Positions 1,337 to 63,650 are shown, numbered from the stretch's first letter. The stretch is 64,000 bases of DNA from Candidatus Poribacteria bacterium (GCA_965222225.1 CBDCTK010000002.1:3872001-3936000), one strand, 5' to 3'. Made by a program: numbers and translations. Notes: generated by a model not told the origin, from the letters alone.

Positions 1337-1437
1337 GGAATTTCTATCGTCCTCGTTGTTCATTCGGTTGATTGCTCCTTATTCATTATTCAGTCGCTTG
1401 AGGGGATTTATATCGAACTCCCTTTTCGATTACTTGA
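1337..1437 (-). repeat. Cluster of three 35-36 bp micro-element copies following GTAGGGCGGGA
   Basis: Minus strand TCAACCGAATGAACAACGAGGACGATAGAAATTCC plus two further partial or degenerate copies. Confidence 0.75.
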
Positions 1438-1550
1438 TCCCGCCCTACCGAGGTTGAGGATAGCGCTTTAATATCGGTTGTGAACTCGTTGGGTTTGGTA
1501 TAGAATAAGATTGTGTTTCTCGAAGACGAATTGGAAGAGTGGGGTAGAAA

Positions 1551-2279
1551 ATGACACAATCGAAACGGGTTGCCCTATGCGTAACGTGCCTAGTGGACCA
1601 AGTCGTACCGGAGGTGGGCGTCGCGTCGGTGCAGTTATTGAGGCGCGCCGGCTACGAGGTCGATTTCCCGGAAGCCCAGACGTGTTGTGGGCAGCCCTTT
1701 TTTAATAGCGGATTCCGAGATCAGGCAATTGATTTGGCAAAGCGGACCATAGAAATCTTTGAACCGTTTGAAGCGGTCGTCCTGCCTAGCGGATCCTGCG
1801 CAACGATGATTAGGGTCGAGTATCCGCATCTGCTGGAAGAGTGGCAGGAGTGGCACCACCGCGCGACCGAGTTGGCGGAAAAGACGTATGAATTGAGCGA
1901 GTTTTTGGTGAACCGCGCCGAATGGAGTCCGGAAGGTGATTTTGAGGAAGTCAATCTAACCTATCACGACTCGTGCCACATGTGTCGTTTGCTGGGCGTG
2001 AAAAAAGAGCCGCGTCAGTTGCTTGAGCGTGTCGGCGGACGGATATCCGAAATGTCGGAATCGGAGCGGTGTTGCGGGTTTGGCGGACTATTTTCGGTGC
2101 GAATGCCGGAAGTGTCCAACGCCATGACTGCCGAGAAGCTGCATCAGGCTTGCGACACGGGCGTGGAGGCGCTTGTCACATCCGATCCGGGTTGTTTAAC
2201 GCAGATGCGGGGACTGGCGGAGGGAAGTTCAATAAAGGTTGAGCATATCGCCACTGTGCTGGAGGAGATGACACGATGA
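1551..2279 (+). CDS. lutA: Lactate utilization protein A (CCG-domain Fe-S subunit, LldE)
   Basis: TCLVD, QTCCGQP, SGSC, YHDSCH and CCGFGG motifs. Confidence 0.92.
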   Translation: MTQSKRVALCVTCLVDQVVPEVGVASVQLLRRAGYEVDFPEAQTCCGQPFFNSGFRDQAIDLAKRTIEIFEPFEAVVLPSGSCATMIRVEYPHLLEEWQEWHHRATELAEKTYELSEFLVNRAEWSPEGDFEEVNLTYHDSCHMCRLLGVKKEPRQLLERVGGRISEMSESERCCGFGGLFSVRMPEVSNAMTAEKLHQACDTGVEALVTSDPGCLTQMRGLAEGSSIKVEHIATVLEEMTR

Positions 2280-3688
2280 CAGCGACATTCTCCGAGTTTC
2301 GTCAACGCGCAAAAACCGCGATTGAAGACCCCCGGCTGCAAGGGGCATTGGATGGCGGAACGGGCAAGTTGTGGGAGCAGCGCCGGCTTGCGTTCGAGGA
2401 ACTTCCCAACTCTGATGTCTTGCGCGACCACTTCAAAGCGATTCGATCGGCGACATTGAGGAATTTGGCAGAGCATCTAGCGACGTTCGAGAAAAATGCC
2501 ATCGCAGCGGGCGCCAACGTTCATTGGGCACGGGATGGCGCGGACGCGCGTGAAATCGTCATCTCAATCGCTCGGGAGCATGGAGTAAAGCTGGTAACGA
2601 AGAGCAAGTCAATGGCTACAGAGGAGATTCACCTCAACAAGGCGTTGGCTGAAGTCGGCGTAGAGGCGATAGAAACGGATTTGGGCGAGTATATCGTTCA
2701 GTTGGCTGAGGAGACGCCCTCCCACATTATTGCGCCAGCCATTCATAAAACTCGCCATCAAGCGGCGGAGTTGCTAAGCCGAGAATCCGGGAGATCGCTG
2801 TCTCCGGACGACCTGACCACGCTCACCGGCGAAGCGCGAAAGCTGTTGCGCGAGCGGTTTCTGACTGCTGGAATGGGAATTTCCGGCGGCAACATGATTG
2901 TTGCCGAAACCGGCAGCGTCGTCTTGGTGACGAATGAGGGGAACGCGCGAATGGTCACATCCGTTCCGCCGGTGCACCTCGCTATGGTCGGAATAGAAAA
3001 GATAGTACCGACATGGGATGACGCCGCCATCTGGCTATCGCTGTTGGCACGGAGCGCGTCGGGGCAACCACTGTCGATTTATACGAGCGTCATCACCGGG
3101 CCATCTCGCGCCGCCGACCCTGATGGGACAGGGGAGGTGCATATCGTTCTGCTGGACAACGGCAGAAGTGAACTCGTCGGCACAAAATACGAGGAGGTGT
3201 TGCAATGCATTCGCTGTGGCGCTTGCCTTAACGTGTGCCCCGTATATCGTGAAGCGGGTGGACATTCGTACGATAGCCCCTACCCGGGACCAATCGGCGC
3301 CGTCGTCACTCCGCTGTTGTTGGGGCGCGAGAACTATGAAGCGCTACCTCATGCGAGCTCGCTGTGCGGAGCATGCAAAGAGGTGTGTCCGGTGCGGATA
3401 GATCTGCCTCGGATGCTGCTTGAGCTACGCGCGGATCAGGTAGCGGAAAAAGCCATACCTTGGAGCGAGAGGAAGGCGGAGGAGACGGGCGCGTTTGTGT
3501 TGAAGCACGAGAAATTGATGCGGTTCATGACAAGCGCGGCTCGATTGGCACAACGTCCGTTCGCGCGAAATGGAAGGCTGCGTCTGCCTCAGCGTCTGAA
3601 TCCGGCGCTTGAGCGTCAATTGCCAGCGCTGGCGAAGCGCTCTTTTCGGGACATGTGGAAATCCGGAGAGTTGGAGGAGAAACGATGA
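2276..3688 (+). CDS. lutB: Lactate utilization protein B (LldF)
   Basis: KSKSMATEEI, ETDLGEYI, CIRCGACLNVCP and SSLCGACKEVCP motifs; ATGA overlap with lutA. Confidence 0.95.
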   Translation: MTATFSEFRQRAKTAIEDPRLQGALDGGTGKLWEQRRLAFEELPNSDVLRDHFKAIRSATLRNLAEHLATFEKNAIAAGANVHWARDGADAREIVISIAREHGVKLVTKSKSMATEEIHLNKALAEVGVEAIETDLGEYIVQLAEETPSHIIAPAIHKTRHQAAELLSRESGRSLSPDDLTTLTGEARKLLRERFLTAGMGISGGNMIVAETGSVVLVTNEGNARMVTSVPPVHLAMVGIEKIVPTWDDAAIWLSLLARSASGQPLSIYTSVITGPSRAADPDGTGEVHIVLLDNGRSELVGTKYEEVLQCIRCGACLNVCPVYREAGGHSYDSPYPGPIGAVVTPLLLGRENYEALPHASSLCGACKEVCPVRIDLPRMLLELRADQVAEKAIPWSERKAEETGAFVLKHEKLMRFMTSAARLAQRPFARNGRLRLPQRLNPALERQLPALAKRSFRDMWKSGELEEKR

Positions 3689-4317
3689 GCCAGCGAGACG
3701 AAATCTTGGAGCGCTTGAGAAAAAGAACGTCGAAAGTAGAGATGCCCGGCGCATGGCAATCACAGCGCAATTTTCCGGATTTGGAGGAGCGCTTTACGGC
3801 GTCGTTAACGGCAGTGCGGGGAGAGGTTCGCCGCACGGAGAACCTGGAAGCAGCATTGGTGGAAGTTGACACAATCCTAAATGAGATTTCTGCAAAAAGC
3901 GTCGTCGCCAACAATGAAACGCCGCTTTCCGAGGTGGGGTTGGAGGAACGTTGGCAGGAGCGTGAATGGTATGTCGTCGGACAAACCCAGGGCGATTTGC
4001 GGGGGTTCTGCGCGCGCGCGGACGCGGGGCTTTCCGGGGTTGAGGCGGCGTTGGCGGAAACGGGCAGCCTCGTCGTTCACAGTGGGGTTGGAAAGAGTCG
4101 ATTGGCTACGCTACTGCCGCCGGTGCATATCGCGCTTGTTCCCGTTTCGTGCCTCGTGCCGGATATATTTATTTGGACGGCTTCGCGAAATAAGGAAGTA
4201 CCTATGCCTTCGAACCTCAACCTCATCAGCGGTCCGAGCAAATCGGCGGATATTGAGTTTACGTTGACACTTGGCGTCCATGGTCCGAAACGCTTGGTTG
4301 CGGTGTTGTATGAATGA
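3685..4317 (+). CDS. lutC: Lactate utilization protein C (LUD domain, LldG)
   Basis: AETGSL and ISGPSKSADIE..L.LGVHGP motifs; ATG at 3685 overlaps the lutB stop. Confidence 0.92.
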   Translation: MSQRDEILERLRKRTSKVEMPGAWQSQRNFPDLEERFTASLTAVRGEVRRTENLEAALVEVDTILNEISAKSVVANNETPLSEVGLEERWQEREWYVVGQTQGDLRGFCARADAGLSGVEAALAETGSLVVHSGVGKSRLATLLPPVHIALVPVSCLVPDIFIWTASRNKEVPMPSNLNLISGPSKSADIEFTLTLGVHGPKRLVAVLYE

Positions 4318-4412
4318 ATCCTCGTCACTTGTTCTATCTCTGTAAAAATCGCCATCTGCAAGTTGACGATAAGAAGCTCTCTAGAATCAAGTATGATTTC
4401 CCTGAGATACTA

Positions 4413-4639
4413 GGTTCTGTTGACATTTATGTTAAGCGTGTGCGTAATCGTAGGGGCGAGGATCAAGTGAGCGAATAGCGAATGCGATAGGGATCTTCCC
4501 CTCGCCCAACGGGTTGGGAGGCACAACCCCTACGGATGCCGGTGCATGCCTAGTCGGGAGCGTGGTTCCCTCGTCCGTTCCTCCTACGGGTTAAGCTGTG
4601 TTCACATGTTAAAAGAACGTGCCAATCACAAACAGAACC
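4413..4639. mobile_element. MITE-like repeat (end GGTTCTGTTGACATTTATG) containing GTAG-REP hairpins and a micro-element
   Basis: Homologous inverted copy at about 60900-61001, related end at about 1283, and AACAGAACC matching right end near 4639. Confidence 0.55.
4463..4497 (+). repeat. 35-bp micro-element inserted in the loop of the REP hairpin GTAGGGGCGAGGA|CCCCTCGCCC
   Basis: TCAAGTGAGCGAATAGCGAATGCGATAGGGATCTT; removing it restores the hairpin. Confidence 0.85.
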
Positions 4640-4653
4640 CGCAAGGGCGGGGA

Positions 4654-4775
4654 TCAAATGAGATCAAGCGAGTGCGATAGTAGATCCCATAGTGAATGAT
4701 CAACTGAGCGAATAGCGAAGGCGATAGACAATCCTACTCGCTATCTGTTCGCTTGATCGTTATCCGCTCGTTAGA
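4654..4775. repeat. Nested micro-element cluster, both orientations
   Basis: Several TCAA..GCGATAG..ATCCY units, nested on the plus strand, followed by minus-strand partial copies. Confidence 0.8.
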
Positions 4776-4781
4776 TCGCAC

Positions 4782-6082: not shown

Positions 6083-6091
6083 ACACAGCGG

Positions 6092-6906: not shown

Positions 6907-8325
6907 ATGAACCGTGTCTTTGAAAACACATCCGCGCTTCTAGGCGCCCATCTCATCACTCGCTTGCTCTCCTTAGGTGTGACATATTTGCTCATGACTC
7001 GTTACTATGGAGAAAAGGAGATGGGGAGCTACTTTCTCGCCATGTATTTCACCAACTTGATTGCTAGTGTGACTGAGTTGGGTATGCATGCTCCGCTGAT
7101 TCGTGAAATGGCCCTGCGTTTGAATCAAGCGCGGCATTTCCTTGGAAATGCTTTGATTATTAGAACCTTGCTATCAATTGTCGCATTCGGATTGATGCTT
7201 GGGGTGGGACGTCTGTTGAATTATCCGCCAGCCACCATGCAGATAATCAAACTGTTCGGGTTGGCGGAGATTCTTAACTTGGTTGCGCAGTCGTACCGCT
7301 GCGTCTTTCGGGCATTCGAGCAGATGAAATATGAAGCCTTCACCGTTATTGCTGAGCGGTCTGTGGTTTGCGTCGTTGGTGGAGTGTTAATTGTCCTGGG
7401 CGTGAATCTCTACGATTTCTGCGTCGTAATCCTAATCGCGAGTTGCATCAACCTTGCCCTGAGTGTCGTGCTCGTCCGATGGAAGTTTGTCGGGTTGCGT
7501 TTTCGATTCAATCTGGCAATCTGGAGCGTGTTGATGCGCCAAGCGTTACCCTTTGCACTCGGCAACATGTTCCATCTCGTCTATCTTCGGATAGGTGCCA
7601 TCATGCTTGAAAGGCTGGGCCCGGACGGCATCGCCGCAAACGCTTGGTTCGGCTTGGCGCATACCTTCGTAAACGCGGTCACAATCCTCCCGGGCGCATT
7701 CTTGGGCGCGATGTTCCCGGTGATGGCTCGCGCTTTCGAGGACAACGAGAGCGACTTTCGCGCGGCGTACACCTACGCGACCCGATGGATGGTTCTGCTC
7801 GGGGTTCCCACTGCTGTTGGCATCGCCGCATTAGCGTGGCAAATAGTCGCCATATTGCCACCGGACAAATACGCGGCATCACGGGTCGCCCCCGCGTTGC
7901 AGTTGTTGAGTTGGTCGGGCGGGCTTGCCTTTTTGACGACAACCCTCATCACGTTGCTGCGGGCGGCGGATAAACGCACCCAGCTCACGCTGCTTATGGG
8001 AGCAACCACGCTCATAAACATCGGGTTAAACTATCTGCTCATTCCTCGGCACAGCCATATCGGCGCCGCGGTGTCGCTGATTGTTAGCGAATCGTTTCTG
8101 TTCGTTGCCGGCTTCGTTTACATTTCTCGGCGCGTCGCAACGCTGACTACTATACGGTATGGGTTCAAAGCCGTCGTGCTTTCCGCTCTGATGGGCTGCG
8201 GACTGATTGTTCTCAGAAAACTATTGCCGATATGGGTACTCATTCCGTTGGCGATCTTGTTCTATGCAGCGGGAATGGCAATTTGGGGGGAATTGAGGCG
8301 GGACAGTTTCAAGCAGGCACTGTAG
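6907..8325 (+). CDS. Wzx-like oligosaccharide flippase
   Basis: Many transmembrane segments; NIGLNYLLIP..S.IGAA C-terminal signature. Confidence 0.85.
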   Translation: MNRVFENTSALLGAHLITRLLSLGVTYLLMTRYYGEKEMGSYFLAMYFTNLIASVTELGMHAPLIREMALRLNQARHFLGNALIIRTLLSIVAFGLMLGVGRLLNYPPATMQIIKLFGLAEILNLVAQSYRCVFRAFEQMKYEAFTVIAERSVVCVVGGVLIVLGVNLYDFCVVILIASCINLALSVVLVRWKFVGLRFRFNLAIWSVLMRQALPFALGNMFHLVYLRIGAIMLERLGPDGIAANAWFGLAHTFVNAVTILPGAFLGAMFPVMARAFEDNESDFRAAYTYATRWMVLLGVPTAVGIAALAWQIVAILPPDKYAASRVAPALQLLSWSGGLAFLTTTLITLLRAADKRTQLTLLMGATTLINIGLNYLLIPRHSHIGAAVSLIVSESFLFVAGFVYISRRVATLTTIRYGFKAVVLSALMGCGLIVLRKLLPIWVLIPLAILFYAAGMAIWGELRRDSFKQAL

Positions 8326-8391
8326 TTGACAGGGTCATGAACTTGCTTGAATGGGACGTGGCGAAACAATCGCAATTGCATGAAGGAGTGA

Positions 8392-8493
8392 TCAACCGAC
8401 CAGACAGGGACGGCGATAGAAATTCCCTCCGATTCGCGACTCCGATTGCCGACAGTTAAAGATCCCTATCGCATTCCTTATTCAGTCGCTTGA
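8392..8493. repeat. Two convergent micro-elements (8392-8426 +; 8459-8493 -), the second after GTAGGTCGGGA
   Basis: Both match the consensus. Confidence 0.8.
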
Positions 8494-8513
8494 TCCCGAC
8501 CTACCGGAAAGCG

Positions 8514-8864
8514 TTAGACCGCCGATGAAACCGTAAATCCCCCGACCAACGAATAGTTCGCGGCGTATTGATAGAGTTTAGAATTCACCTTCTGAATTTG
8601 GTCGGGTGTGTGATGAGTTCCCTCATTAGACCAGGCAGCATTATTGGCTTCTACACTTTCCCAGAGCGTCAACCAACCGTAATCGGACTCGGCATGTGCC
8701 ACGGCGTCAAGATCGCCTTGGTATCCTTTCAGCAACTCTACCCCTAGGCAGCCGGGCAGCGCGCGAATCGAGGGCAAAAACTCGTGCAACATGAAATCCT
8801 CAAACAACTCCCCTTCAACGTCAGGTTTCAGTTCAATCGTGTGAATGGCACGAAAACGTGGCAT
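8514..8864 (-). CDS. Small dimeric alpha/beta-barrel (ABM-like) hypothetical protein
   Basis: RBS GAGGAG; LKPDV..F..., LPGC and W.S.E pattern. Confidence 0.55.
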   Translation of the reverse strand: MPRFRAIHTIELKPDVEGELFEDFMLHEFLPSIRALPGCLGVELLKGYQGDLDAVAHAESDYGWLTLWESVEANNAAWSNEGTHHTPDQIQKVNSKLYQYAANYSLVGGFTVSSAV

Positions 8865-10033: not shown

Positions 10034-10504
10034 CGTCTCGATCCTCCAATTTGAATGTATGAATCGCTGTCAGGTGAATGAATCATGTTCGAAGGCAACA
10101 GCTCGCGTAACGACAAAATCAGCGACTCAAGAGCAATCGGATATTCATAGAAATCCTTATGTATGTAGTCCATTTCACAGTATGGCTCTAATCACCGAGT
10201 GCGGGGCTTACCGCGAGTTAGCCTATAGGATAAGATTTTGCCCTCTACACAAAGCGATTGTCGGGTGTACCTGCCGACCTACGAGAAGACATCTTGTAAA
10301 ACAGCGTAATCAGGAAGTATACACCAAAATTCATAAAAGATCAAGAGCATTTGCTGGGATAGAAGCAGGGAATGGCTGAACGGACGGAAGAGTGGAAGGA
10401 GGGAACAGGGTGAATAGAGAAGTAGCGGAGAGGGAGGCCGGGGATTCGATGGTCACCGATGTCACCCTACAGAAAAAGTGCACCACACGGGAGAAAGAAA
10501 CCGA

Positions 10505-10620
10505 TCAACCGACCGGATAAATCAAGCGATCGAACAGGGGGCGATCAAGGGAATGAAAAATGACCGCGATAGAGTTCGCATAGGGATCCCAGGGCGATAG
10601 AAAATCCAGATAGAGATCCC
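10505..10620 (+). repeat. Nested micro-element stack inside an AGAAACCGA...TCGGTTTC palindrome
   Basis: Three 5' ends and four GATAG..ATCC-type 3' ends between the palindrome arms. Confidence 0.8.
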
Positions 10621-12884: not shown

Positions 12885-13081
12885 AGTGGAGTTTTCCGTA
12901 TCCGAAGGCGAGAGAGAAGTTTTTGGAGTAGTGAGAAGCAGTAGGACGACTACGTTCGTGAAGAAAAGTGACAAACCCTTACGGAATGTCGGGTGCCGCT
13001 AGCTTACTTTTCGACGTGTCCGTTCTCTTACCACCAAAACTTTAGCATAGCACACAGATTGAGTTCCACTCAACAGTAAAT

Positions 13082-14069
13082 AGACATCTTTCCAAAATAA
13101 GCATCTATTTGGCTTGATTTTACGTTATATCCTTTCAACATCTTCTATTGTAGAAAGGATACCCATGAGTCAATTTGAAAAAGCAGTAAAGTTGTCAGAT
13201 GAGCAATTTCTGCGGGCGGTTGGTGTTGATAAGACAACTTTCAACCTTATTTTGGAGCGTGTGGCTGTTTACCTCGAAAGTGTTCGAGAAGAACGGCCGA
13301 TGAAGAAACGAGGAAAGAAATCGGAGGTGGCATTGCCCGATCGCCTTCTATTGACATTCACCTATTTGCGCCACTATCCAACCTTTGCCAGATTAGGCAC
13401 GGAGTTTGGTATCAGTGAGTCTTATGCAAATAAAATCTATCATCAGATACTTGATGTGTTATTAAAGTGCTTTCGATGAAGAATCGAAAGCACTTATTAG
13501 AGAGCAATCTCCAAACAATCGTCATTGATGTCACCGAGCAACCCATTGAACGTCCAACAAAAGGACAGCGTGTCTACTACAGCGGTAAAAAAACGGCACA
13601 CAATAAAAGTTCAATTGATTGCGTGTTTGGCGATGTTAGAAATATTATCGGTTATCTGCCGCAAAGGGGGCGTTCACGATTACAGAATTCTGAAGGAAAG
13701 CCGTCTGGCGATTTCCCCCGAAACTGAGAAGTTGGCTGACAGTGGTTATCAGGGCATAGCCAAACTGTATGCCAACAGTTCGACGCCCATCAAGAAATGT
13801 CGGAGTGGGCCCTTGACTCAGGAGGCAAAGCAATTCAACCGACGGTTGGCAACACAAAGGGTTGGTATTGAGCATATCGTCAGATGGTGTAAGATTTTTC
13901 GCATCACCAAAGACATCTATCGAGGCAAACATCGCAACTATGGGAAAACATGGAATGTGATTGCCGCGATTGTTAACTTGTGACACTCCTCGACAAGTTG
14001 CCAAACAGTGTAGTTATTCTAATCTCCAAGATTACTGTAACTACATAATTCCATTTTGGAAAGATGTCT
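13082..14069 (+). mobile_element. IS5-family (ISL2-like) insertion sequence
   Basis: Perfect TIR AGACATCTTTCCAAAAT at 13082-13098 and 14053-14069, with TA at the ends. Confidence 0.88.
13165..13983 (+). pseudogene. IS5-family transposase split over three frames
   Basis: HTH part (YLRHYPT..LG..FGISES), IDVTEQPIERP, YSGKK/RHTIK, LADSGYQG and R..IEH motifs; frameshifts near 13467 and 13590. Confidence 0.85.
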
Positions 14070-14339
14070 AATGAGCTTCGTATCAGGAAAACCGGGCAAA
14101 CGATGAATAAGCTCGGTATCGGGGCAAAAGCGCAACTCCGAATAGATTTTCAGAAAAAACTCAAAAAAGTGCTGTGAAACGCCGATTTATATAAAATTTA
14201 TGAAACGACCGCTAGATAACATCGTTTGTGAAGTGTACGTAAGTTTCAGAAATGTGTTTTGAGTGCGTTCTGGGTGTATCTTTCCAAAAGATATATCATC
14301 CTACATCTTGGCTCGACTGGTACATTTGTAGACACCGGG

Positions 14340-14455
14340 CAATCGAATAGCGAGCAGGATTATCTATGGAATCTCTATCGCACTCACTATCGCGGTAGGA
14401 TTTCTATTGTGCTCCGTGTTCAGTTGCTTAATCCGCCGCTATCCGATTAGTTGAA
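14340..14455. repeat. Degenerate micro-element cluster, mixed orientation
   Basis: GAATAGCGAG followed by minus-strand CTATCGCACTCACTATCGC units. Confidence 0.65.
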
Positions 14456-14615: not shown

Positions 14616-15659
14616 TAGGAGTTACGCAGTTGAGTGAAAATAGGTTATAATTTGAGTATGAATCCCCCTAAATATACTGACACTGACTATATTGATTTCT
14701 TGGTAGCCGCTCAGAAAAGTTACAGTTGTCTTGAATCGGAAAAAGTTCAACCCCAAGCTGATAATCCTCCGGCTCACGATTCGATAACACGGCTCTTGCA
14801 TCGAGAGGAACCCGATACTGGCAAACTGTGGCAAGAATCGAGAAATCAGGTGAAATTAGAATCCGGAATTTTAGTTATAGATGACTCGACTCTGGATAAA
14901 CCTTATTCACAAAAGATTGAACTCGTGACAAAACACTGGTCAGGGAAACACCACCGAGTTGTGAATGGGATTAACTTGGTCACTTTGCTCTGGACGGATG
15001 GCGATAGACATATTCCGTGTGATTATCGAATCTATGATAAAGCCAAAGACGGCTTGACGAAGAATGAGCATTTCCGCGCCATGCTTGAAGAAGCGAAAAC
15101 ACGCGGTTTTGCTCCTGAATGTGTGTGTTTTGATAGTTGGTATGCCAGTCTAAAGAATCTAAAAGCGGTGCGAGGTCATGGTTGGAAGTGGCTTACTCGT
15201 CTAGCTGCCAACCGACTTGTCAGTAAAGATTATTCCGGTAACCGTCCGGTGAGTACGCTTCCGAGTGAATCAACAGGTACAATTGTCCATCTCAAAGGCT
15301 ATGGATTGATTCGAGTATTTAAGGTTGACACTCCAGAAGGTGACATTGAATATTGGGCAACGAATGATTTACAGATGGACGAATTGACGCGTCTCAAATA
15401 TGCCGAATGGTCTTGGACAATAGAAGAATATCATCGCGGGATTAAGCAATTTGTTGGCATTGAACGCGCACAAGTGCGCTCTGCTCGCACTCAAAGAAAT
15501 CATATCGGTTTAGCGCTGAGAGCCTTTCTGAGAATTGAGCACTATTGCTATCATACCGGTATCAGTTGGTTTGATGCAAAACTCTCTATTGTCAGAGATG
15601 CGGTACGGGCTTATTTGGCACAACCTCTTTATACGCTTCAGCCAACTGCGTAACTCCTA
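14616..15659 (+). mobile_element. IS701-family insertion sequence
   Basis: TIR TAGGAGTTACGCAGTTG / CAACTGCGTAACTCCTA; flanking direct repeat CTATA. Confidence 0.9.
14634..15653 (+). CDS. IS701-family DDE transposase (start probably MNPPK)
   Basis: VIDDSTLDKPY, FDSWY and W.IEEYHRGIKQ motifs; stop codon lies inside the right TIR. Confidence 0.9.
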   Translation: MKIGYNLSMNPPKYTDTDYIDFLVAAQKSYSCLESEKVQPQADNPPAHDSITRLLHREEPDTGKLWQESRNQVKLESGILVIDDSTLDKPYSQKIELVTKHWSGKHHRVVNGINLVTLLWTDGDRHIPCDYRIYDKAKDGLTKNEHFRAMLEEAKTRGFAPECVCFDSWYASLKNLKAVRGHGWKWLTRLAANRLVSKDYSGNRPVSTLPSESTGTIVHLKGYGLIRVFKVDTPEGDIEYWATNDLQMDELTRLKYAEWSWTIEEYHRGIKQFVGIERAQVRSARTQRNHIGLALRAFLRIEHYCYHTGISWFDAKLSIVRDAVRAYLAQPLYTLQPTA

Positions 15660-22210: not shown

Positions 22211-22241
22211 CGTTGTGAGGTAGGAGTGATCTCCGAATCAA

Positions 22242-22350
22242 TCAACCGAGTGGATAGCGAGTAGGATTTTCTATCGCCTTGGGATTTCTATGAACTCCAT
22301 CACACTCGCTATTCACTCATTTGATCCCTCGTTGTCCACTCGGTCAATCC
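22242..22350. repeat. Micro-element cluster, mixed orientation, next to a GTAG-REP
   Basis: TCAACCGAGTGGATAGCGAGT followed by nested minus-strand copies. Confidence 0.75.
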
Positions 22351-24030: not shown

Positions 24031-24072
24031 TTTAGGCCTCCAGTAGTTGCGATTGTTTTTTGAAACGTAGGA

Positions 24073-24189
24073 TCAAGCGAACGATCAACTGAGCGGATAG
24101 CGAAGGCGATAGTAAATCCCATAGTGAGTGCGATAGAGATTCCCTCAAACGAGATCGACCGAACTGACAGTGAGTGCGACAGCTTTTTC
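24073..24189 (+). repeat. Cleanly nested micro-elements (inner 24085-24120 inside outer 24073-24144) plus further copies
   Basis: Removing the inner 36 bp restores an intact outer copy. Confidence 0.88.
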
Positions 24190-28138: not shown

Positions 28139-28297
28139 GAGCCTGTTTGAAAATACAGTTTGTAAGGTGCGATCAAGCGAATGAATAATGAGCGCGATAG
28201 AGATCCTACAGATATGTAGCAGCCAACAATGAAAACATGAAAAAACTTCCGACAAATGACTAAAAATGGCTTTGCCACCGATAATTCAAGCAGGCTC
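28139..28297. mobile_element. MITE with TIR GAGCCTG(T/C)TTGAA and TAA target duplication, carrying a micro-element (28173-28207)
   Basis: TAA|GAGCCTGTTTGAA...TTCAAGCAGGCTC|TAA; homologs at 47516 and 60378. Confidence 0.85.
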
Positions 28298-29217: not shown

Positions 29218-29309
29218 GAAATCGGTTTTTCATCAGCTAATACCATTCCGCTTGAATAATAGTGCATATGATGTCTGAATTATATCGTTCACTTTCTCCG
29301 TAGACGGGA

Positions 29310-29358
29310 TCAACTGACTGGATAAGGAAGGCGATAGCTAATCCCGATAGAGATTTCC
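29310..29358 (+). repeat. Micro-element with extra 3' end
   Basis: After GTAGACGGGA: TCAACTGACTGGATAAGGAAGGCGATAGCTAATCCC then GATAGAGATTTCC. Confidence 0.8.
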
Positions 29359-34283: not shown

Positions 34284-34335
34284 TCAACTGAGATCAAGGG
34301 AGCGCGATAGGGATCCCAAGGCGATAGGCAATCTC
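34284..34335 (+). repeat. Nested micro-elements
   Basis: TCAACTGAGA-TCAAGGGAGCGCGATAGGGATCCC-AAGGCGATAGGCAATCTC. Confidence 0.8.
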
Positions 34336-34368
34336 GTTAGCCTTTTCCGCGCCCCACATACAACTCGG

Positions 34369-37300
34369 CTACTTCCGTATCAACATCTTCCGTGTCGCCG
34401 CAAATTCACCCGCCCTCAGCGTATAGAAATATAAACCGCTGGCGATCGACTCGCCACGCCCATTCCGACCATCCCAATACGTTGCACGTCCTAGGCTCTG
34501 ATACATGCCCGCCGCTTGATGCCCCACATCAAGACGTCGCACTAGCTGTCCCCCGATGTCATAGATGGTCAGTGCGATCTCTGCCGGAGCTGCCAACTGG
34601 TACGCTATCCAGGTCTCAGGATTGAAGGGATTCGGATAATTGGGCAGGAGTGCCGTCTCTGACGGGATCATCGAGGCTGACAACACCTCGAGGTTGGCTA
34701 TGGCTTGTCGGAAGGCGATTGAGCCGTCGTCTGCGAGTCGTGCTTGGGCAATCCACGTCTCTATTGTCTTGGATTCTAACCCATGCGCTGGCGGCGCGGC
34801 AGTTCCGCCAATTCCCTGAGCGACGAGAGTGAGGTCGAATATATTTACAACCCCATCGCCATTAACATCCACGCTCGAGTTGGCGGGCACACTTCTCCCT
34901 AACTGCCGCGCAACCAGAATCAGATCCAAAATACTGACAACTCCATCACGATTTACATCCCCGGTCATCAGCCGTTCCTCCACAATGAAAGTGATTTCAT
35001 GCGGCCCCGCCGGGATGTTTTCACCAGTGAAAGAGCCAAGCTGGAAGTTACCCAGCGCCACTGCTGTTTCGCCTTCAGACTTCGCCTTAAACCTTACCTG
35101 AAGCAGGGGACCGCTGCCACTGACGCCACTGTCGGAAAGCAGCGCAGCCTTGAGTCCCATGATTTTTCCATTTGCGTTATCAATACGCCCAGCCTGAAAG
35201 AAGACTGTTCCTCCATCCGTCTTCAGGAAATCGCCTTCGCTCGTGTCAATCGCTTCAAGGACGAAAGAATCAAAGGCGATATCAAACTGCCACCCCGCCA
35301 AGTCGAACACATTTTCTGCTCGGATGTCGAGGCTAAAGGTATCGCCGATGTGAATTGGCGTCTCGGAAAAGGCGTAGCCGACGCCAGTTCCCACCGTATA
35401 TTCAGTGTTGGGCTCAAATCCAAAGAAAGCGCCGGTGTCGAAACTAGGCGAGAAAACCGCAACTAACAAAACATTTTTCCCCTGCTGAAGCGTAACCGGG
35501 AAAAAATCATTGTAATCAAGCTCCAGCGCCCTGTCACCCAGCACCTCGTAGACCAAATCTCCGTTGAGCCAGACCTTTAGTCCTTCGTCGTTGCCAACGT
35601 GCATCCTTGTCTTCTGTTCCCGTGGCGAATAGAGGGATATAGTGCCGTAGATAACGCCGTCGCTCAGCATACCTCCGATGTTGTTCCGATCCGTAGACGG
35701 GAGTTGGTGGGAGGTCCACACGTCATCGCCAACTGATTTTCCCACTGTTGCCCCCTGTGTGGCGACGTCCACCTCTGTCACCGTACCGTCACTGGCTTCT
35801 GATAGTAAATCGGTACTGCTATCCAGTATGGTGTCCGGTAACAAGACCCATAACCAAGGTCCCCCAATTTTTGGACCTCCTTGTGGGAAACCCGGATTGT
35901 CGTACGTCCCAAGGAATTTCATATTGGGACGTAACCCGTCTAGAGGAGAAAGATCGGAGATTTCGTTCACGGAGACATCCAGCCATGTTAAATTGGATAA
36001 ACCGGCGAGCGCCGATATGTCTGAGATTATGTTGTTGTGGAGGTTCAACCACTTCAAGTTGGATAACCCTGCAAGGGATGATATATCCGATATATCATTA
36101 CGTGAAAAATCTAGCCGTTTCAAATCGGTTAATCCCGCAAGGGGTGAAATATCCGCTACGTCGTTGCCGAATAGATACAGTTCTTCTAGGCCCGTCAAGC
36201 CCGCCAAAGGGGTAAGATCCGATATATCTCCACCGGGAAGAATAAATGCCTCAGTTTTGTCAATCCTGCCAAGGGCGATAAATCGGATGCGGATGTGCCC
36301 ATGTGAATGAGTTCCAGGTTGACTAATCCGGCAAGCGGCGATAGATCGCGTATGTTAGAGTGACTCACAAAGAGTTGCTCTAACTTGGGTAGCCCAGCAA
36401 GGGGTGTAAGGTCCTCTACTCCATGAAGAGCTAAAAAAGTTAGATTAACCAATCTGGAAAGCTGTTTCGCGTCATGAATAACGGAAGGTGAATCGATGAA
36501 GTCAATATCTAGAGCTTTTAACTGGGTTAGTCCTGCTATCGGAGAGAGATCGGACACCTTAGACCCACTACCATTTATGCTAGACAGATTGGTCGCAAAC
36601 TGAAGACCGGTTAAATCGCGGATATCTTGGCCCTCTATTATGCTCAAGAAAGTCAATCCTTCCATGTCTTCCACGGTTATCGGGGCATTGGGACTTTTGC
36701 CAAGTTCTTCAGCAATGGCAGTGCGTAGGTTCGGATCCGGGATATAAACCTGCGTACCCGGTATTACATCCGGCTGCGTTATTACCGGGGGCTCTCCAAC
36801 TTGCCCCGGGTAATCCAGCGCATACATCACGTCTCGAAAACTCGATGTCCAGGTGTCCCGTTGCACGCTCCCGTTCTCACCCTCTAACGCCAACAAACCT
36901 ATGTTCTGTAGTCCCGTGTTCTCACGAACCTTTTCGAGAAAGACTTCGGTTTCTAAACCAACCACGGCAGCGGCGTATGCGGCGTCTACCGGTCCCTGAA
37001 ACGCCTCATGGAAACGTGAAATCGGCTCAACCCCGCCAATCGCACCGCCCGTCTCTACAAGCGCTTCCCGATAGCGCTCCATGTCGCCACCCACACGAGC
37101 GTCCATGTCCGACTTTTCAACGTAGAGTCGCAACGCCTGCGCTTTGTTGTAAGGCGGGTTGGTATTGCTCTCAATCACGGAACGTACCTGGTCTTCAAGG
37201 GTCTTCATTCCCTCCGTATGACAACCTATACAGGAAAGTCCGTTGCACACCGTCGGGTCGCTGGCTGCGGGGTTGGAAACAATGTTTATCGGCGCCTCGT

Positions 37301-38501
37301 CTAGACGGAAACTGGACGCATTGACAAGGTAGTAGCCCTGCAACCCGTTTGGCAGATTGAAGATTGCCTCACCGCCATCGTGCGTGAAATTAAGCGGGTG
37401 GGTAAAGATGTTCTGTGCCCCGACACTCCCGGCAAAGTCGTAGCTTTTCCAGTACGCCCCGTATCGAGAGGTGTGCCGTTCCACTACCCGGTTGTTATTG
37501 GAGACTCCCGAATTGTTGAAACCCGCCCGCAAGACGCGAACCCCGGGTGCATTAATCAGATTACGGGCGACATCAACCTCCAGTCGGGTTTCCAACTCCC
37601 TATCCGTTAGTGGCAGCGAAAGCAGGTCGTGATACAGCGGTGGGGTGGATGCCGTTGCAATGAACCAGTCGATATGAACCGACGGCACATCGGTCTTCAT
37701 CTGTGTCTGCAACCGTCCAAGTTGATTCCGCAGGGCGGACTGTGCGGATGCATCAAAGGCGATGTGGTAGGGGTATTCCTCTTCTATCTTCGTCCAGGCA
37801 TCGTTGACATCCCATTCGTAGTGTCGGAGGTCGATGTAGAAGATGGTTACTTGCGAGTCGATTGGGATTGGGTTGATGACTGTTACTCCCCATGAGAGGC
37901 TGTTAACCAATTTATAGAGTGCTTTGCGGTACCCACCAAGTAACTCCGGAGTCCTAGAAACCCCTATCGCGCTCCCTATTCGGTCGCTTGATCCAGCGTT
38001 ATGGAGATGGGTAAGTGTGAAGTGGCGGGCAAACGCTGAAAGTGTGTTGAGGTGCGTGTCAATGCTCTTGAGTATTTCGCCGAGCGAGATAAACCGGCTA
38101 TTGGTCGTGGGAGTCGTCGCCCAATCGGGTGCGCCGGCTACTATCCAGCGTCGAATGGTGTCAATCGACTGAGGGGGCAACTGGGGCTGTCCGAACGGCA
38201 TCTGTGCGCCGCTTTCGGTGGGGCCTAGCAGCCGTTTATACAGCTCGGAGGCATTCGGATTCCCCGGAACAACGGTGCCCCCTCCGATAAGCTCGCTGTG
38301 TTCCATCAGGAGTGTTTCTCGATAAGCGCCGTCGGGACCGTGGCAGATGAGGCAGCTCCCCTCAAAAATGGCATAGGTATCTTGGGCTAACTGCGATTGG
38401 GCGGACACATGTTGAGAGCCTACGATGAAGGTCAATAGGTAGATAAATGTAACGCGATTCTGAGCACGAACCGGAGAAGAGATAGAATGACGTTTAAGCA
38501 T
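34369..38501 (-). pseudogene. Large secreted protein (Planctomycete-type cytochrome c domain, second CxxCH domain, LRRs, cohesin, dockerin, FlgD-Ig tail) split by a frameshift near 36240
   Basis: CLICH and CIGCH motifs; the LRR series continues across ORFs 36195-38501 and 34369-36207 after a 1-nt shift; GDVNRDGVVSILD dockerin; NYPNPFNPET tail. Confidence 0.8.
37956..37991 (-). repeat. 36-bp micro-element inserted in frame in a CDS (encodes SSDRIGSAIGVS)
   Basis: Minus strand GGA|TCAAGCGACCGAATAGGGAGCGCGATAGGGGTTTCT|AGG. Confidence 0.88.
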
Positions 38502-44269: not shown

Positions 44270-44516
44270 TAGCTCGACTTTGTAAAAAAGTACAATTCTG
44301 AATTGCCATCTTGTAGGGTGCGATCAAAGGAATGAATAATGACTGCGATAGAGATTCCCTGCGCACCAGCCTCTAAAAGCCCCAGAGTGGGATCAAGGGA
44401 GCGAATAGTGAGTGCGATAGAAACCTGACAGGTATGTAGCAGCCAACAATGAAAACATGAAAAAACTTTCTCAAAATCTCAAAAATGGCTTTGCCACCGA
44501 TTCTTCAAACAGGTTC
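44270..44516. mobile_element. MITE-related repeat with two micro-elements (44324-44358, 44393-44426)
   Basis: Right half matches the 28139/47516 MITE and ends TTCAAACAGGTTC|TAA; left end unclear. Confidence 0.7.
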
Positions 44517-47510: not shown

Positions 47511-47515
47511 TTTAA

Positions 47516-47687
47516 GAGCCTGTTTGAAAAGTACATTTGTAGGGTGCGATCGACTGACTGATTAAGGAAGGCGATAGTAAATCTTGATAGAGATCCCGCA
47601 GGTACGTAGCAGACAACAATAACAACATGAAAAAACTTCCTACCAATGACCAAGAATGGCTTTGCTACCAATTATTCAATCAGGCTC
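47516..47687. mobile_element. MITE (TIR GAGCCTG.TTGAA, TAA duplication) with micro-element 47550-47597
   Basis: TAA|GAGCCTGTTTGAA...TTCAATCAGGCTC|TAA. Confidence 0.85.
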
Positions 47688-50599: not shown

Positions 50600-50686
50600 T
50601 ATCGGAGCGCGATAGTAGATCTTGATAGAGTTCCCTTAGAGATTCCAGGGCGATAGAAATCCCATAGAGCTCTCATAGACATTTCC
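50600..50686 (+). repeat. Stack of about six micro-element 3' ends
   Basis: GCGATAGTAGATCTT-GATAGAGTTCCC-TTAGAGATTCC-AGGGCGATAGAAATCCC-ATAGAGCTCTC-ATAGACATTTCC. Confidence 0.75.
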
Positions 50687-51910: not shown

Positions 51911-51957
51911 CCAGCCCGTTAGGCAAGTCTCAGCTTGACTTTGTACATTTGTAGAGA

Positions 51958-52010
51958 TCAAACGAGTGGATAGCGAGTGCGATAGCTAATCCCGCGCGAT
52001 AGAAGATTCC
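51958..52010 (+). repeat. Micro-element with extra 3' end
   Basis: TCAAACGAGTGGATAGCGAGTGCGATAGCTAATCCC then GCGCGATAGAAGATTCC. Confidence 0.8.
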
Positions 52011-52025
52011 TTCACGCCCCCTCAA

Positions 52026-53602: not shown

Positions 53603-53735
53603 GTGTGAATTTCCTTTTCCCCACTATCTGCCGTCTCCGTGTTGAATCTCCTCATCAAGCCAACACCGCCCGAAGTGGATTGACAAATCCACTGCAGTAT
53701 CTAACCCAAATTGCCACCCCTCTCGTAGGTCGGGA

Positions 53736-53782
53736 TCAAGCGAGCAATCAAGCGACTGGATAAGGAGCGCGATAGAGTTCCC
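53736..53782 (+). repeat. Nested micro-elements in REP GTAGGTCGGGA...TCCCGAC
   Basis: Two TCAAGCGA 5' ends and one complete unit. Confidence 0.8.
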
Positions 53783-56295: not shown

Positions 56296-56310
56296 AACTT
56301 TTTCCTCTCT

Positions 56311-60246: not shown

Positions 60247-60377
60247 TTATCATGCATATATTAGCAATCAATGATCGGTATGATTGTGTGCGGCATAGTA
60301 GTAGGGAATGCAGATCTGCGTTCCCCACAATCGTGAAGGGACGTACGTCCTATAATAAATGCACGTATTGACATTCA

Positions 60378-60644
60378 GAGCTTGTTTGAAAATTCATTTC
60401 GGGAAGAGCTTTTGCCCTGAAACCGATCAAATGAGCGAATAGCGAATGCGATAGAAATCCCTATTTTCTTGAAAACTCCGTTTCTTTCTTGCGCAAACCC
60501 GTAGGGTGCGCGCTGGGATCAAGGGAGCGAATAGTGAGTGCGATAGAAATCCTGACAGGTGTATAGCAGGCGACCACAAAAGCATGAAAAAGCCGCGCCC
60601 ACAGTGACCGAAATTGCTTTGCCACCTATTATTCAAACAGGCTC
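60378..60644. mobile_element. MITE (TIR GAGC(C/T)TGTTTGAA, TCA duplication) with two micro-elements (60427-60461, 60519-60553)
   Basis: TCA|GAGCTTGTTTGAA...TTCAAACAGGCTC|TCA. Confidence 0.85.
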
Positions 60645-60735
60645 TCAAGTAATACCATTTCGTTTGAATAGCAGTGCATAGAGTGAAATAATTATCTCGT
60701 TAGGACTTACGCGGTGGAGCACCCGGTAGGAGCGA

Positions 60736-60770
60736 TCAAACGAATGGATAACGAGTGCGATAGAGATCCG
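60736..60770 (+). repeat. 35-bp micro-element in a GTAG-REP (filled counterpart of 43157-43181)
   Basis: GTAGGAGCGA|TCAAACGAATGGATAACGAGTGCGATAGAGATCCG|TCTCTCGCTCGCGAC. Confidence 0.9.
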
Positions 60771-61054
60771 TCTCTCGCTCGCGACAGGAGGTCGCGAGGA
60801 AAGTCCGCTCCGACAGAAGACGCGCAATAAATTGCGCTACTACAAATCAAACCAAGCAAATCCAACACGTGTAATTCTTAATTGCAATGACTATAAGAGT
60901 TCCCGGTTAGGCATGCACCGGCATCCGTAGGGGTTGGGTCTACCAACCCTTGTGCCTCCCTCGAATTACGCACACGCCTAGCATAAATGTCAACAGAACC
61001 TAATACGGTATCTGACAAAAATTAACAATCTCTGGCTTCCAGAAAGGAAAAATA

Positions 61055-62275: not shown

Positions 62276-62405
62276 TCATTCTCTAATCGGTGCCCTCTCT
62301 GGCTGCTCCGTCTGGATTGGCAAACCCGGAATGATCGGATTGTCAGTCAGCGGGAGTTTGTAGGGTGGGCACTGCCCACCGTCTTTTGTAGGGTGCACAC
62401 TGCGA

Positions 62406-62440
62406 TCAAGGGAATTGAAATTGATTGCGATAGAGACTAT
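62406..62440 (+). repeat. Degenerate micro-element after a GTAG-REP
   Basis: TCAAGGGAATTGAAATTGATTGCGATAGAGACT. Confidence 0.7.
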
Positions 62441-62656
62441 TTTGTCCCGCATTGGAAAGATGTACCATTACTCGTAGGCCAAGTTCCGTAGACGGGGCAT
62501 CTTGCCCCGTATTGGAAAAACTTGATTGACACCTCTAATGCCCGGCAAATTAAGACAAATCGTATTCCTAGCTTCCAACCCGCCCGTTTGGAGGGCGAAT
62601 CCGATTCCCGCTGACGATATCGCCAATCATCCGACAGCATACACAGCGCCTCTTTT

Positions 62657-63562
62657 ATGTACACAATCCTCGCCATCCTTCTGACCTCCATCTGCTCATT
62701 AGGGCATTCGGTAGATGTACCACCGAGTGAGGCCCAACCTACAGAAAAACAGTTGCTCTATGCCGAGCAACTCTTCGACGCCCGTACCTACAGTCCCTCC
62801 ATTCTTGAGTACAAGCGTTTCCTTTTTTACCAACCACATACCGAAATGGCGGATTTTGCCCGCTATCGCATTGTCCAAGCGCACTACTACCAAGGTAACC
62901 GCGGATACTCCCGGCAACTTTTCGGGGAATTCATGGAAACCTTTCCCGAATCTCCGCTGTATCACCACGCCCAGCTAATGCTCGGAAAAACTCACCTGGA
63001 CGACCAAGAATACGCCACGGCTCGATCTACTTTCTTTCGGATTCTGCAAGCAAATGGAGATGAACGTTTGTTGGTACAAGCCCAATACCTGCGCGGATGG
63101 TGCTATGTACACGATCGAAACTGGTTTAAGGCGATAGCAGAATTCCGCAACGTCCATCAACTGCGCGGGGAGAATCGTCAGGCTGGAACTTTAGACGCCC
63201 GTTTGGAACAAACCGCTACCAAACTTGCCGACACAACCCTCGCCAATACACCGTTGCCGTTAAAGTCGCCGAAACTTGCCCAACTGTTGTCCACGGTTGT
63301 CCCCGGGAGCGGGCAAATCTACGCCGGCAAGACCCGCAACGGTCTTATCTCTTTAGGAATCAATGCCGCATTTTTTTACCTGTTAACGGATTCGGTTGTC
63401 GATAAGCGTTACGTTGATGCGGTGGGAATCTTTCTGGTGGGTTCCCGGTTCTATTCGGGAAATCGCCACAATGCGAAGAAGTGGGCGATGGAGCATAACC
63501 GAGATCTTGAGACGGGCTTGATTGAGCGATTAAAAAATATCGAGCGTGAAATCATTGAATAG
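62657..63562 (+). CDS. Exported TPR (BamD-like) protein with C-terminal membrane domain
   Basis: Signal peptide; TPRs; KSP.LA.LLS.VVPGSGQIYAG motif. Confidence 0.75.
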   Translation: MYTILAILLTSICSLGHSVDVPPSEAQPTEKQLLYAEQLFDARTYSPSILEYKRFLFYQPHTEMADFARYRIVQAHYYQGNRGYSRQLFGEFMETFPESPLYHHAQLMLGKTHLDDQEYATARSTFFRILQANGDERLLVQAQYLRGWCYVHDRNWFKAIAEFRNVHQLRGENRQAGTLDARLEQTATKLADTTLANTPLPLKSPKLAQLLSTVVPGSGQIYAGKTRNGLISLGINAAFFYLLTDSVVDKRYVDAVGIFLVGSRFYSGNRHNAKKWAMEHNRDLETGLIERLKNIEREIIE

Positions 63563-63605
63563 CGCGATAATTGTTAGGAATTACGCAGTTCGGTTGTAGT
63601 AGCGA

Positions 63606-63650
63606 TCAAGGAAGATCAAGCGAATGTATATAGTGAATGCGATAGATGTC
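63606..63650 (+). repeat. Nested micro-element after GTAGTAGCGA, abutting the IS1 end
   Basis: TCAAGGAAGA-TCAAGCGAATGTATATAGTGAATGCGATAGATGTCT. Confidence 0.75.

Follow-up and report, generated by a model that had tools for sequence, protein, structure and literature searches.

The question raised by a 64,000-nucleotide stretch of a Candidatus Poribacteria genome (GCA_965222225.1 CBDCTK010000002.1:3872001-3936000; "the window" below means this whole stretch) is how a very short repeat without any coding capacity came to be so abundant in it. A preliminary description, made from the sequence alone, had taken this repeat for a mobile micro-element of an undescribed kind with no terminal inverted repeats (TIRs), no target duplication and no palindrome, mobilised in trans by an enzyme encoded elsewhere. 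We found that the element is an interrupted palindrome with covarying NN pairs, and both its hairpin and its status as an insert are well shown. The explanation that we favor, with a probability of about 0.6, is a non-autonomous hairpin insert that would be placed by a trans-acting, structure-reading single-strand enzyme, probably at or behind replication forks.

The unit reads GA-TCAA-NN-GA-NN-GRATA-NN-GA-NN-GCGATAG followed by a tail of 7-8 nt, 35-37 nt in total. By information content, the conserved block extends from -2 to +34 (zero being the T of TCAA) and consists of the same string continued by ARATCCC, the tail found in the window's genus. Used as a search pattern, the consensus of the preliminary description (TCAANNGANNGRATANNGANNGCGATAG) matched the window 20 times at up to 2 mismatches and did not match in 100 dinucleotide-preserving shuffles. 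An nhmmer profile trained on 866 copies, all outside the window, gave 25 window matches at E<=0.01, 19 of them full length, and none in the reversed window; the by-eye count of about 25 loci in 64 kb was thus borne out, and every example position given with it holds a copy, the head of a nested copy (24073 and 53736) or a truncated composite (34284). In the whole genome (G000; 5.70 Mb in two contigs, 50% G+C), the profile scan that had been proposed found 1,110 matches (946 near full length), which make up ~0.7% of the DNA. By pattern, 537 genome copies were exact and 1,092 had up to 3 mismatches, compared with 2 in the reversed genome. The copies are dispersed, with 629 clusters of one copy and 151 of two. 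In the set of 881 genome copies with at most 1 mismatch, positions -2 and -1 are G (0.91) and A (0.97), the 5' flank reads G[C/G]GA, and base preferences upstream of it are weak; the purine-rich strand, the two orientations and the preceding GA were therefore correctly described. The copies in the window are as follows (E values are those of nhmmer).

1337..1372, minus strand: full-length copy (E 2.8e-07; pattern match with 2 mismatches)
1382..1401, minus strand: partial copy, 5' head (E 0.0029, model positions 3-22)
4461..4496, plus strand: full-length copy with complementary flanks GGGGCGAGG...CCTCGCCCC (E 1.9e-10)
4698..4734, plus strand: full-length copy, tail-to-tail against an inverted partial copy (E 1.5e-09)
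4736..4758, minus strand: partial copy (head), the inverted partner of the 4698 copy (E 0.0056)
8390..8426, plus strand: full-length copy (E 3.5e-07; spacer alignment)
8460..8495, minus strand: full-length copy (E 7.3e-10; spacer alignment)
10543..10577, plus strand: full-length copy, innermost of a nested stack (E 3e-07), with heads at 10503-10542 and tails at 10578-10620
14368..14390, minus strand: partial copy, 3' tail (E 1.4e-05, model positions 15-37)
22241..22262, plus strand: partial copy, head (E 8.1e-05)
22293..22326, minus strand: full-length copy (E 7.1e-06)
24071..24084, plus strand: head of an outer copy, split in the apical loop (G-A^ATA; from the sequence; loop-insertion class)
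24085..24120, plus strand: complete 36-nt inner copy inside the loop of the outer copy (E 1.1e-09)
24121..24143, plus strand: tail of the outer copy, ATAGTGAGTGCGATAG... (E 2.7e-05, model positions 15-37)
28171..28207, plus strand: full-length copy in a GTAG-tagged context resembling a repetitive extragenic palindrome (REP) (E 1.4e-11)
29308..29344, plus strand: full-length copy, then a solo tail (E 2.9e-08)
34284..34340, plus strand: truncated nested composite of a head, an internally deleted copy and a tail (from the sequence; tail match E 0.018)
37956..37991, minus strand: 36-nt copy, in frame in the open reading frame (ORF) 36195-38501(-) (E 4.7e-09)
44322..44358, plus strand: full-length copy in the centre of a GTAGGGTGCG...CTGCGCACC REP, of which empty paralogues exist (E 1.9e-10)
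44391..44424, plus strand: full-length copy (E 4.3e-10)
47548..47583, plus strand: full-length copy in a GTAGGGTGCG REP context (E 9.1e-06)
51956..51992, plus strand: full-length copy, then a solo tail (E 4.2e-10)
53747..53782, plus strand: full-length copy behind the head of another copy at 53734-53746 (E 2.8e-10)
60425..60461, plus strand: full-length copy in a host repeat with 3 empty paralogues, ...ACC-GAG-TAT... (E 2.4e-11)
60517..60553, plus strand: full-length copy (E 9e-12)
60734..60769, plus strand: full-length copy after GTAGGAGCGA (E 3.7e-11)
63614..63647, plus strand: degenerate near-full-length copy (E 0.0023)

Tandem Repeats Finder reported no array in the window. Elsewhere in the genome, at G000 C2:1578375-1578600, six copies with differing stems lie head-to-tail, and a constant 8-nt spacer (TCTTGTAG) takes the place of the tail. 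At window position 50603, a contig of run X7 has 23 more bases that complete a full copy, of which the window keeps the 3' tail alone; this deletion falls between two GGAGCG repeats and so shows a route by which solo tails may originate.

Is the element really devoid of a palindrome, as was first stated? Our results demonstrated the opposite. Among the 537 exact copies, the outer NN pairs were both formed in 499 and the inner NN pairs both formed in 511, while the mis-registered controls gave 117 and 166, respectively. The 881 copies include 430 distinct cores, and their two variable stems occur in 59 combinations, with pairing retained throughout this variety; the 3,524 stem cells comprise 3,005 Watson-Crick pairs, 381 G.T/T.G, 44 A.C/C.A and 94 others. 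Because the NN pairs covary and G.T exceeds A.C, one strand can fold as a hairpin, and from the approximately nine-fold excess of G.T over A.C it follows that the fold is kept solely on the purine-rich strand, as RNA or as single-stranded DNA. The top strand was predicted to fold better than the bottom strand in 778 of the 881 copies with RNA parameters and in 633 with DNA parameters. The layout of the fold is ATC-AA-NN-GA-NN-G(RAT)A-NN-GA-NN-GC-GAT, in which steps of 2-3 bp alternate with purine-purine steps (AA/GC and tandem GA/GA) and, in the predicted fold, a G.A pair closes a three-base loop. The commonest predicted fold, that of 539 of the 881 copies, has an extra constant basal helix, ATC/GAT. 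T never stands before the GA steps and A never after them, and these neighbours fit the YGAR context that is favourable for sheared tandem G.A pairs. Constancy of the GA steps, the loop and the flanks, with NN positions that are free but paired, is the pattern to be expected if a protein reads the element; such a protein would read the non-canonical steps and the flanks, and the Watson-Crick steps would merely hold the fold.

That the element is inserted, and not simply conserved, was evident from sites that exist in both filled and empty form. A RAYT gene has its own REP downstream; at this orthologous place the REP is empty in genomes G002, G004 and G009, with the sequence cacctgtcgcccctctggggc, and a copy fills it at that spot in G000, G001 and G005. 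A host repeat has the empty form ...CCCTGAAACC-GAG-TATTTT... in three paralogues and the filled form ...ACC-GA[TCAA...ATCCC]TATTTT... in three to four, including the one that holds the window copy at 60427. As the filled paralogues share nearly the same stems, this copy multiplied later together with its host repeat, and part of the copy number consists of passengers inside larger repeats that multiplied later. In contigs of four runs, a joint 60426->60462 that skips 35 nt was present in all four, in one contig each, with 30-32 letters on the shorter side; we rejected it as excision or population polymorphism, since the empty paralogues of the host repeat explain it best.

The copy at 37956-37991 is an exact 36-nt insert of 12 codons (SSDRIGSAIGVS) in a conserved PSCyt1-family protein, and the 12 residues are exactly missing in five homologues (G001, G002, G003, G005 and G009). 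Pfam PSCyt1 and LRR domains of ORF 36195-38501(-) flank the insert. PSCyt1-domain proteins form a large family of paralogues to which this ORF belongs, and each related genome has 3-15 matches; family members mostly occupy open frames of ~1,400-1,500 residues, and the window member has 768. In the spacer at 8325-8514, presence and absence were compared between species: G005 lacks both copies and G008 lacks one. The place of the 8390..8426 copy is occupied in G002 and G003 and not in G005 or G008, while that of the 8460..8495 copy has orthologues in G003 and G008, is decayed in G002 and is missing in G005. Based on these empty orthologous and paralogous sites, the initial proposal of a very small, abundant, noncoding insert that depends on functions encoded elsewhere has stood.

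The element also inserts into itself and into CRISPR repeats. Excision of 108 of 878 copies restores an outer copy at no more than 1 mismatch, and the hot spots of self-insertion are G21 of GCGATAG (34), the apical loop GA^ATA (18.5), the position after the second GA (16) and tandem placement (10); window positions 24071-24143 give a clean example of loop insertion. At G000 C2:2705500-2707800 there is a CRISPR array with a 37-nt repeat and spacers of 35-39 nt. Of its 12 repeat heads, 4 run into a copy at ...GAAAAG[C/G]G|A-TCAA; from the opposite side, inverted copies abut the repeat hairpin at the corresponding position of the other strand. This junction between CRISPR repeat and element recurs in 7 of the 10 genomes of the window's genus. 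The surrounding locus, G000 C2:2703012-2707800, with the array beside the sole Cas1 gene of the genome, contains a locally amplified module made up of the hairpin core, the element, ~100 nt with a degenerate repeat, and an inverted element.

Given that the copies are inserts, what do their boundaries say about the way of insertion? The 5' junction was always G|A-TCAA, which can be read as G[C/G]G-A|TCAA, with the insert immediately 3' of a G. None of the five kinds of filled/empty sites displayed a target duplication or a TIR, as had been claimed from the window alone, and 0-3 target bases were lost at the junctions. Accordingly worded, the proposed mechanism would place the insert behind a G without duplication. 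Three more specific schemes were rejected. A unit running from GATC to GATC like a restriction fragment, with duplication of GATC, fails because GATC is missing from the empty sites; a tail ATC supplied by the target, as for HIP1, is contradicted by the empty REP sites; and a general location in the loop of a host hairpin does not agree with the fixed-register pairing of the flanks, which is near random (0.37). The longest complementary run between the flanks is likewise the same as in re-paired controls. A perfect stem of at least 4 bp ending exactly at G(-2) precedes 78 of 621 non-nested copies (12.6%), compared with 4.1% of the control, which consisted of [GC]G^A intergenic sites; a hairpin 3' arm ending at G(-2) is therefore a tendency and not a rule.

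These boundaries bear on the possibility that there is no dedicated enzyme and that the copies are patches of replication or repair, in which a polymerase, on stalling at a hairpin rich in G, jumps to an existing copy as its template, copies the hairpin unit and jumps back, or in which a small hairpin DNA is captured at a break. Slightly ragged junctions with 0-3 replaced target bases and no duplication would suit such patches, as would the enrichment of targets at the feet and loops of hairpins, an orientation that tracks replication-related skew and the failure of the candidate enzymes to track the element (both described below). However, both ends of the unit are constant across hundreds of independent contexts, unlike what random template switching would leave, the 5' junction is invariable, and 87% of the non-nested copies have no perfect stem of at least 4 bp ending at G(-2). 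We consider an enzyme-free origin, in its two variants together, unlikely.

The taxonomic distribution of the element was investigated in 176 Candidatus Poribacteria genomes at no more than 1 mismatch. Matches were found in 21 genomes, and 155 had none. All 10 genomes of the window's genus contain ~600-1,300 copies each, and a second genus (g4), which belongs to a different family, has ~200 in each of its 4 genomes, giving 14 element-rich genomes, those of sponge-dwelling bacteria; there are 19 copies in one more genome and 1-5 in another six, and these low counts, partly on small contigs, could be carry-over from binning. The second genus has the same core and pairing (86 of 88 pairs in 22 copies) with the tail T[C/T]TT. 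Because the tails differ over the same core, the two genera hold their own subfamilies. Among the matches listed, all element-bearing stretches (at least 99) belong to metagenome-assembled genomes of Candidatus Poribacteria, and viral contigs gave no match.

It might be argued that the element is a motif selected by the host and not mobile at all, namely a single-strand hairpin bound by a protein for chromosome replication or organisation or for RNA metabolism. Compensatory change does maintain the fold across more than 1,000 copies of two genera, the strand-skewed orientation resembles that of chromosome-polarity motifs, and orthologous copies persist between species. Nevertheless, such a motif would not be expected to nest in itself, to enter CRISPR repeats and coding sequence, or to be present and absent at orthologous and paralogous sites; it is without relation to transcription units and without a match in 155 of the 176 genomes of the phylum. 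This alternative is distinctly unlikely.

By a rough ORF prediction, in which ORFs take up 82% of the chromosome, 876 of 1,025 copies are outside ORFs; most of the others fall in ORFs of ~100-140 residues that are unlikely to be genes. Flanking genes are co-oriented with the copy in 311 cases, anti-oriented in 274, divergent in 147 and convergent in 143, whereas the shares expected from spacer length are 66% tandem, 20% divergent and 14% convergent. As the arrangement is close to these shares, the copies have no tie to transcription units. Orientation followed another property of the chromosome. Where GC skew (+-25 kb) is above 0, there are 179 plus and 318 minus copies, and where it is below 0, there are 388 plus and 140 minus; orientation correlates with local GC skew at r = -0.35 and with gene-strand bias at 0.06. 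This bias is not an artefact of composition, because the element's own G-rich strand would shift the skew in the opposite direction. The folding strand is thus mostly on the C-rich strand, i.e., the leading-strand template. There are two potential readings. Asymmetric palindromes are lost more frequently when their stable strand is on the lagging-strand template, and copies with the stable strand exposed there may have been lost more often; or the insert may come in together with the nascent lagging strand. On either reading, the signal favors single-stranded DNA over mRNA, and a route through single-stranded DNA is probable. On this assumption, the enzyme would handle one DNA strand, single-stranded, at or behind replication forks. 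On contig C2 of G000, the sign of the GC skew switches at least 7 times and the element orientation switches with it, which suggests many inversions or some assembly mis-joins. Among neighbours within 250 nt, 267 pairs have the same orientation and 68 are inverted, the latter being tail-to-tail in 53 cases and head-to-head in 15.

The preliminary description had named three candidate enzymes, a reverse transcriptase with a short RNA template, an HUH nuclease and a Cas1-like integrase, and had proposed to look for a master copy beside such a gene and for co-occurrence of the two. The first candidate corresponds to RNA-mediated spread, in which a transcript of the unit would fold as RNA and be turned back into DNA. 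Tolerance of G.U-type wobble on one strand only, and a fold more stable under RNA than under DNA parameters, would agree with it. On the other hand, just 4 of the 10 genomes in the window's genus had an RVT_1 match (3 of them weak, at 27-29 bits), as did 2 of 4 of the second genus, and a reverse transcriptase is for this reason disfavoured; moreover, orientation is unrelated to the neighbouring genes, poly-A or priming signatures were not found, and Rfam gave no match. In Rfam, 0 matches reached the gathering scores, and E<=1 gave solely a chance mir-17 match away from the copies. Spread through RNA is highly improbable.

A master element carrying a gene was also rejected. After 72 heads no GCGATAG follows; nearly all of these heads run into another copy, in either orientation, and none runs into a long insert. 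The genes near the dense region at 1.53-1.58 Mb are ordinary (a methyltransferase, a ferrochelatase, cytochromes, coiled-coil proteins and one HTH protein). Contigs from RNA libraries cover the region of the window; contigs cannot show transcripts, their strand or their ends, and such libraries may contain DNA. The IS-like DDE transposases of the window were rejected as the agent too, since DDE enzymes make TIRs and duplications. They are encoded by two elements resembling insertion sequences (IS), at 13081-14070 and 14616-15659, with the domains HTH_Tnp_4 + DDE_Tnp_4 and DDE_5/DDE_Tnp_1; both have many copies of 85-96% identity in related genomes.

Among the three kinds of enzyme, those with a catalytic tyrosine of the HUH type (Y1, IS200/RAYT-like) form the best single candidate, which we put forward only tentatively. 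Y1_Tnp genes were found in 34 of 41 relatives, among them the whole set of 14 element-rich genomes, and also in element-free genomes. G000 has five Y1 genes or fragments, two of which are flanked by inverted copies of the element. One, at C2:3080258-3080728, has two copies upstream and one inverted copy downstream, and the other is a truncated remnant between inverted copies. The gene at C2:3080258-3080728 is of RAYT type and is flanked by its own REP in inverted orientation. Its cognate REP is GCCCCAGAGGGGCGACAGGTG in the window's genus, ...GGGGCGATATGTTTATAGA in g6 and GCTCCAGCGGAGCGATATGTCTATAGA in g3 and g4, so that, as judged from sequence, RAYT and REP appear to change together across lineages, a tidy case. 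A further gene, G000 C2:2563965-2564705, encodes a 247-residue Y1 protein 99% identical to a protein of G005; since ordinary genes of G000 and G005 are ~85-90% identical, a recent transfer is suggested.

The case of Cas1 is bound up with the invaded CRISPR arrays. If Cas1-Cas2 integrated copies off-target at hairpins, the unit would be a substrate of spacer size, and indeed its 35-36 nt compare well with the 35-39 nt of the spacers in the resident array. In addition, the highest copy density of the genome, 30 in a 10-kb bin, falls on the CRISPR array at 2 kb from the sole Cas1 gene, a junction of repeat and element lies within ~10 kb of a Cas1 of the same subtype in G001, G003, G004, G005 and G009, and none of the 14 element-rich genomes lacks Cas1. 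But target duplications do not flank single copies, Cas1 is also present in 6 of 7 g6 and 6 of 10 g3 genomes that are element-free, and in G002, G006 and G008, with ~600-940 copies each, the Cas1 subtype of the invaded array was not found. Furthermore, a repeated G-rich hairpin would be a good target for the single-strand enzyme that we favor anyway. Integration by Cas1-Cas2 is very unlikely.

Several observations weigh against a hairpin insert placed by a structure-reading single-strand enzyme. First of all, no single gene among the Y1, Cas1 and reverse transcriptase candidates examined tracks the element. In particular, the immediate flanks of the Y1 gene at C2:3080258-3080728 are a different REP (GCCCCAGAGGGGCGACAGGTG and relatives) in every genome, its orthologues occur in all 7 g6 genomes searched, all seven element-free, and no orthologue was found in 2 of the 4 element-bearing g4 genomes; two further Y1 genes of G000 occur sporadically. 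And then, a loss of 0-3 target bases is unlike the precise strand transfer of HUH enzymes, there is one hairpin and not two subterminal ones, and the strand bias of IS608-type elements is opposite to the placement on the C-rich strand seen here. The strand-bias test itself refers to one assembly with a patchy skew profile. The predicted stability is not above that of shuffled sequences (RNA -5.1 vs -4.6 and DNA -1.5 vs -2.0 kcal/mol); either the energy rules undervalue this architecture, as nearest-neighbour rules may do for tandem G.A, or a protein is needed to hold the fold. Finally, exact orthologous boundaries were few because the species compared are 83-90% identical in their genes, and no gain or loss within a population was demonstrated with the contigs of the four runs. 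Because the junctions are ragged and the sign of the strand bias is opposite, an enzyme-free origin by template switching retains some probability.

Of the three candidates, HUH/Y1 and Cas1 were present in 14 of 14 element-rich genomes as well as in many element-free ones, and the reverse transcriptase is disfavoured. The element would be non-autonomous and depend on functions encoded elsewhere. It may also represent a new class of single-strand micro-transposon, served by an enzyme type for which no link to transposition is known so far, or by a Cas1 or Y1 enzyme with a new mode of action, which we regard as conceivable but doubtful.

To which known repeats is the element related? It appears to be outside every named family, and the small dispersed repeats (SDRs) of Nostocaceae, of which SDR4/5/6 were reportedly described by Elhai et al. 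2008, are the closest described phenomenon. According to the relevant passages of the literature, they are precisely inserted into HIP1 (PMC4390886, PMC5861425, PMC13756078), SDR5 between bases 3 and 4 of GCGATCGC, a short G/C-rich palindrome (PMC4390886, PMC5861425, PMC13756078, PMC3116915). SDR5 is 21 nt long and its function was still called unknown in 2026 in the sections concerned (PMC13756078), and SDRs, as far as these are discussed there, were not found beyond Nostocaceae (PMC5861425). Like SDRs, our element is far below the size of MITEs (miniature transposable elements with inverted repeats), dispersed in high copy and precise in its insertion point, and it has no enzyme of its own; its main self-target, G21 of GCGATAG, is close in position and sequence to the GCGATCGC site. 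Unlike them, it occurs in Poribacteria, measures 35-37 nt vs 21 nt for SDR5, and has a hairpin with tandem G.A steps. SDRs also nest in one another, and SDR hairpins show compensatory changes. The likeness is one of description, and a relation to the consensus sequences of SDR4/5/6 would be hypothetical.

REPs are described, in the part of the source bearing on them, as imperfect palindromes of 20-40 bp with an unpaired GTAG or CGTC tag at one end (PMC3733652), and the corresponding parts of three papers have REP/REPIN elements mobilised by RAYT (Y1 HUH) transposases (PMC3733652, PMC3116915, PMC2817692). The element resembles REPs in being a covarying palindrome of 35-37 nt with ~1,100 copies, mostly extragenic and occasionally intragenic, and it resembles REPINs in that inverted pairs exist, with tail-to-tail dominant, and that two Y1 genes or fragments are flanked by inverted copies. 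However, the GTAG/CGTC tag is missing, as the element starts with GA-TCAA and ends with ATCCC; a GTAG 6-13 nt upstream of 195 of 881 copies belongs to host REPs. It also differs from the REPIN doublet in that most copies are single (the 629 clusters above) and same-orientation pairs outnumber inverted ones, and from REPs in that its targets include genuine GTAG REPs and one clear RAYT's cognate REP and that it does not avoid divergent spacers. A GTAG-tagged REP unit of 28 nt (TTTGTAGGGTGGGCACTGCCCACCGTCT) lies at window 62357-62384, in tandem with a second similar unit, and is missing from one contig of run X15.

Other families are more distant. A MITE is not compatible with ends (TCAA... and ...ATCCC) that are not inverted repeats, nor with filled/empty pairs devoid of target duplication. 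IS200/IS605 elements have neither TIRs nor duplication, depend on hairpins, are strand-specific and have an orientation tied to replication. The element shares with them the lack of TIRs and of duplication, insertion 3' of a short motif and strand specificity, but it has a single hairpin within 36 nt, ragged junctions and the opposite strand bias, and no cognate TnpA for it was found among the Y1 genes examined. Rickettsia palindromic elements, of ~100-150 bp, can sit in frame in protein genes; the element is likewise palindromic and in frame inside a protein gene, with one clear intragenic case examined here, but it has only 35-37 nt. Unlike a CRISPR repeat, it is dispersed, and the 37-nt repeat of the resident array is another sequence, which the element interrupts. 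Hence, the earlier exclusion of MITEs and CRISPR repeats holds, whereas that of REPs holds for the tag and not for size, palindrome and copy number. Similarly, the element is not undescribed in kind, given the comparable SDRs and REPs, but no such repeat is described in the Poribacteria literature on palindromic or repetitive intergenic sequence that we searched (supplementary files not covered).

With the cyanobacterial SDRs arose the question, still open, of how repeats far smaller than MITEs spread. The element is a second, independent system of small repeats with far more data, namely ~1,000 copies in a genome and two genera with at least 14 sequenced species. Considering its structural code, hot spots, strand bias and filled/empty sites, the mechanism is testable by comparative genomics and by oligonucleotide biochemistry. 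For the host, the element adds 12-residue inserts to proteins and disrupts CRISPR repeats; it also breaks short-read Poribacteria assemblies, the contigs of the four runs ending at copies. If the micro-transposon reading is true, the element would be spliced 3' of G-rich hairpin arms, including those of CRISPR repeats, and would erode the arrays of its host, and no smaller mobile DNA with a defined recognition code based on structure would be known.

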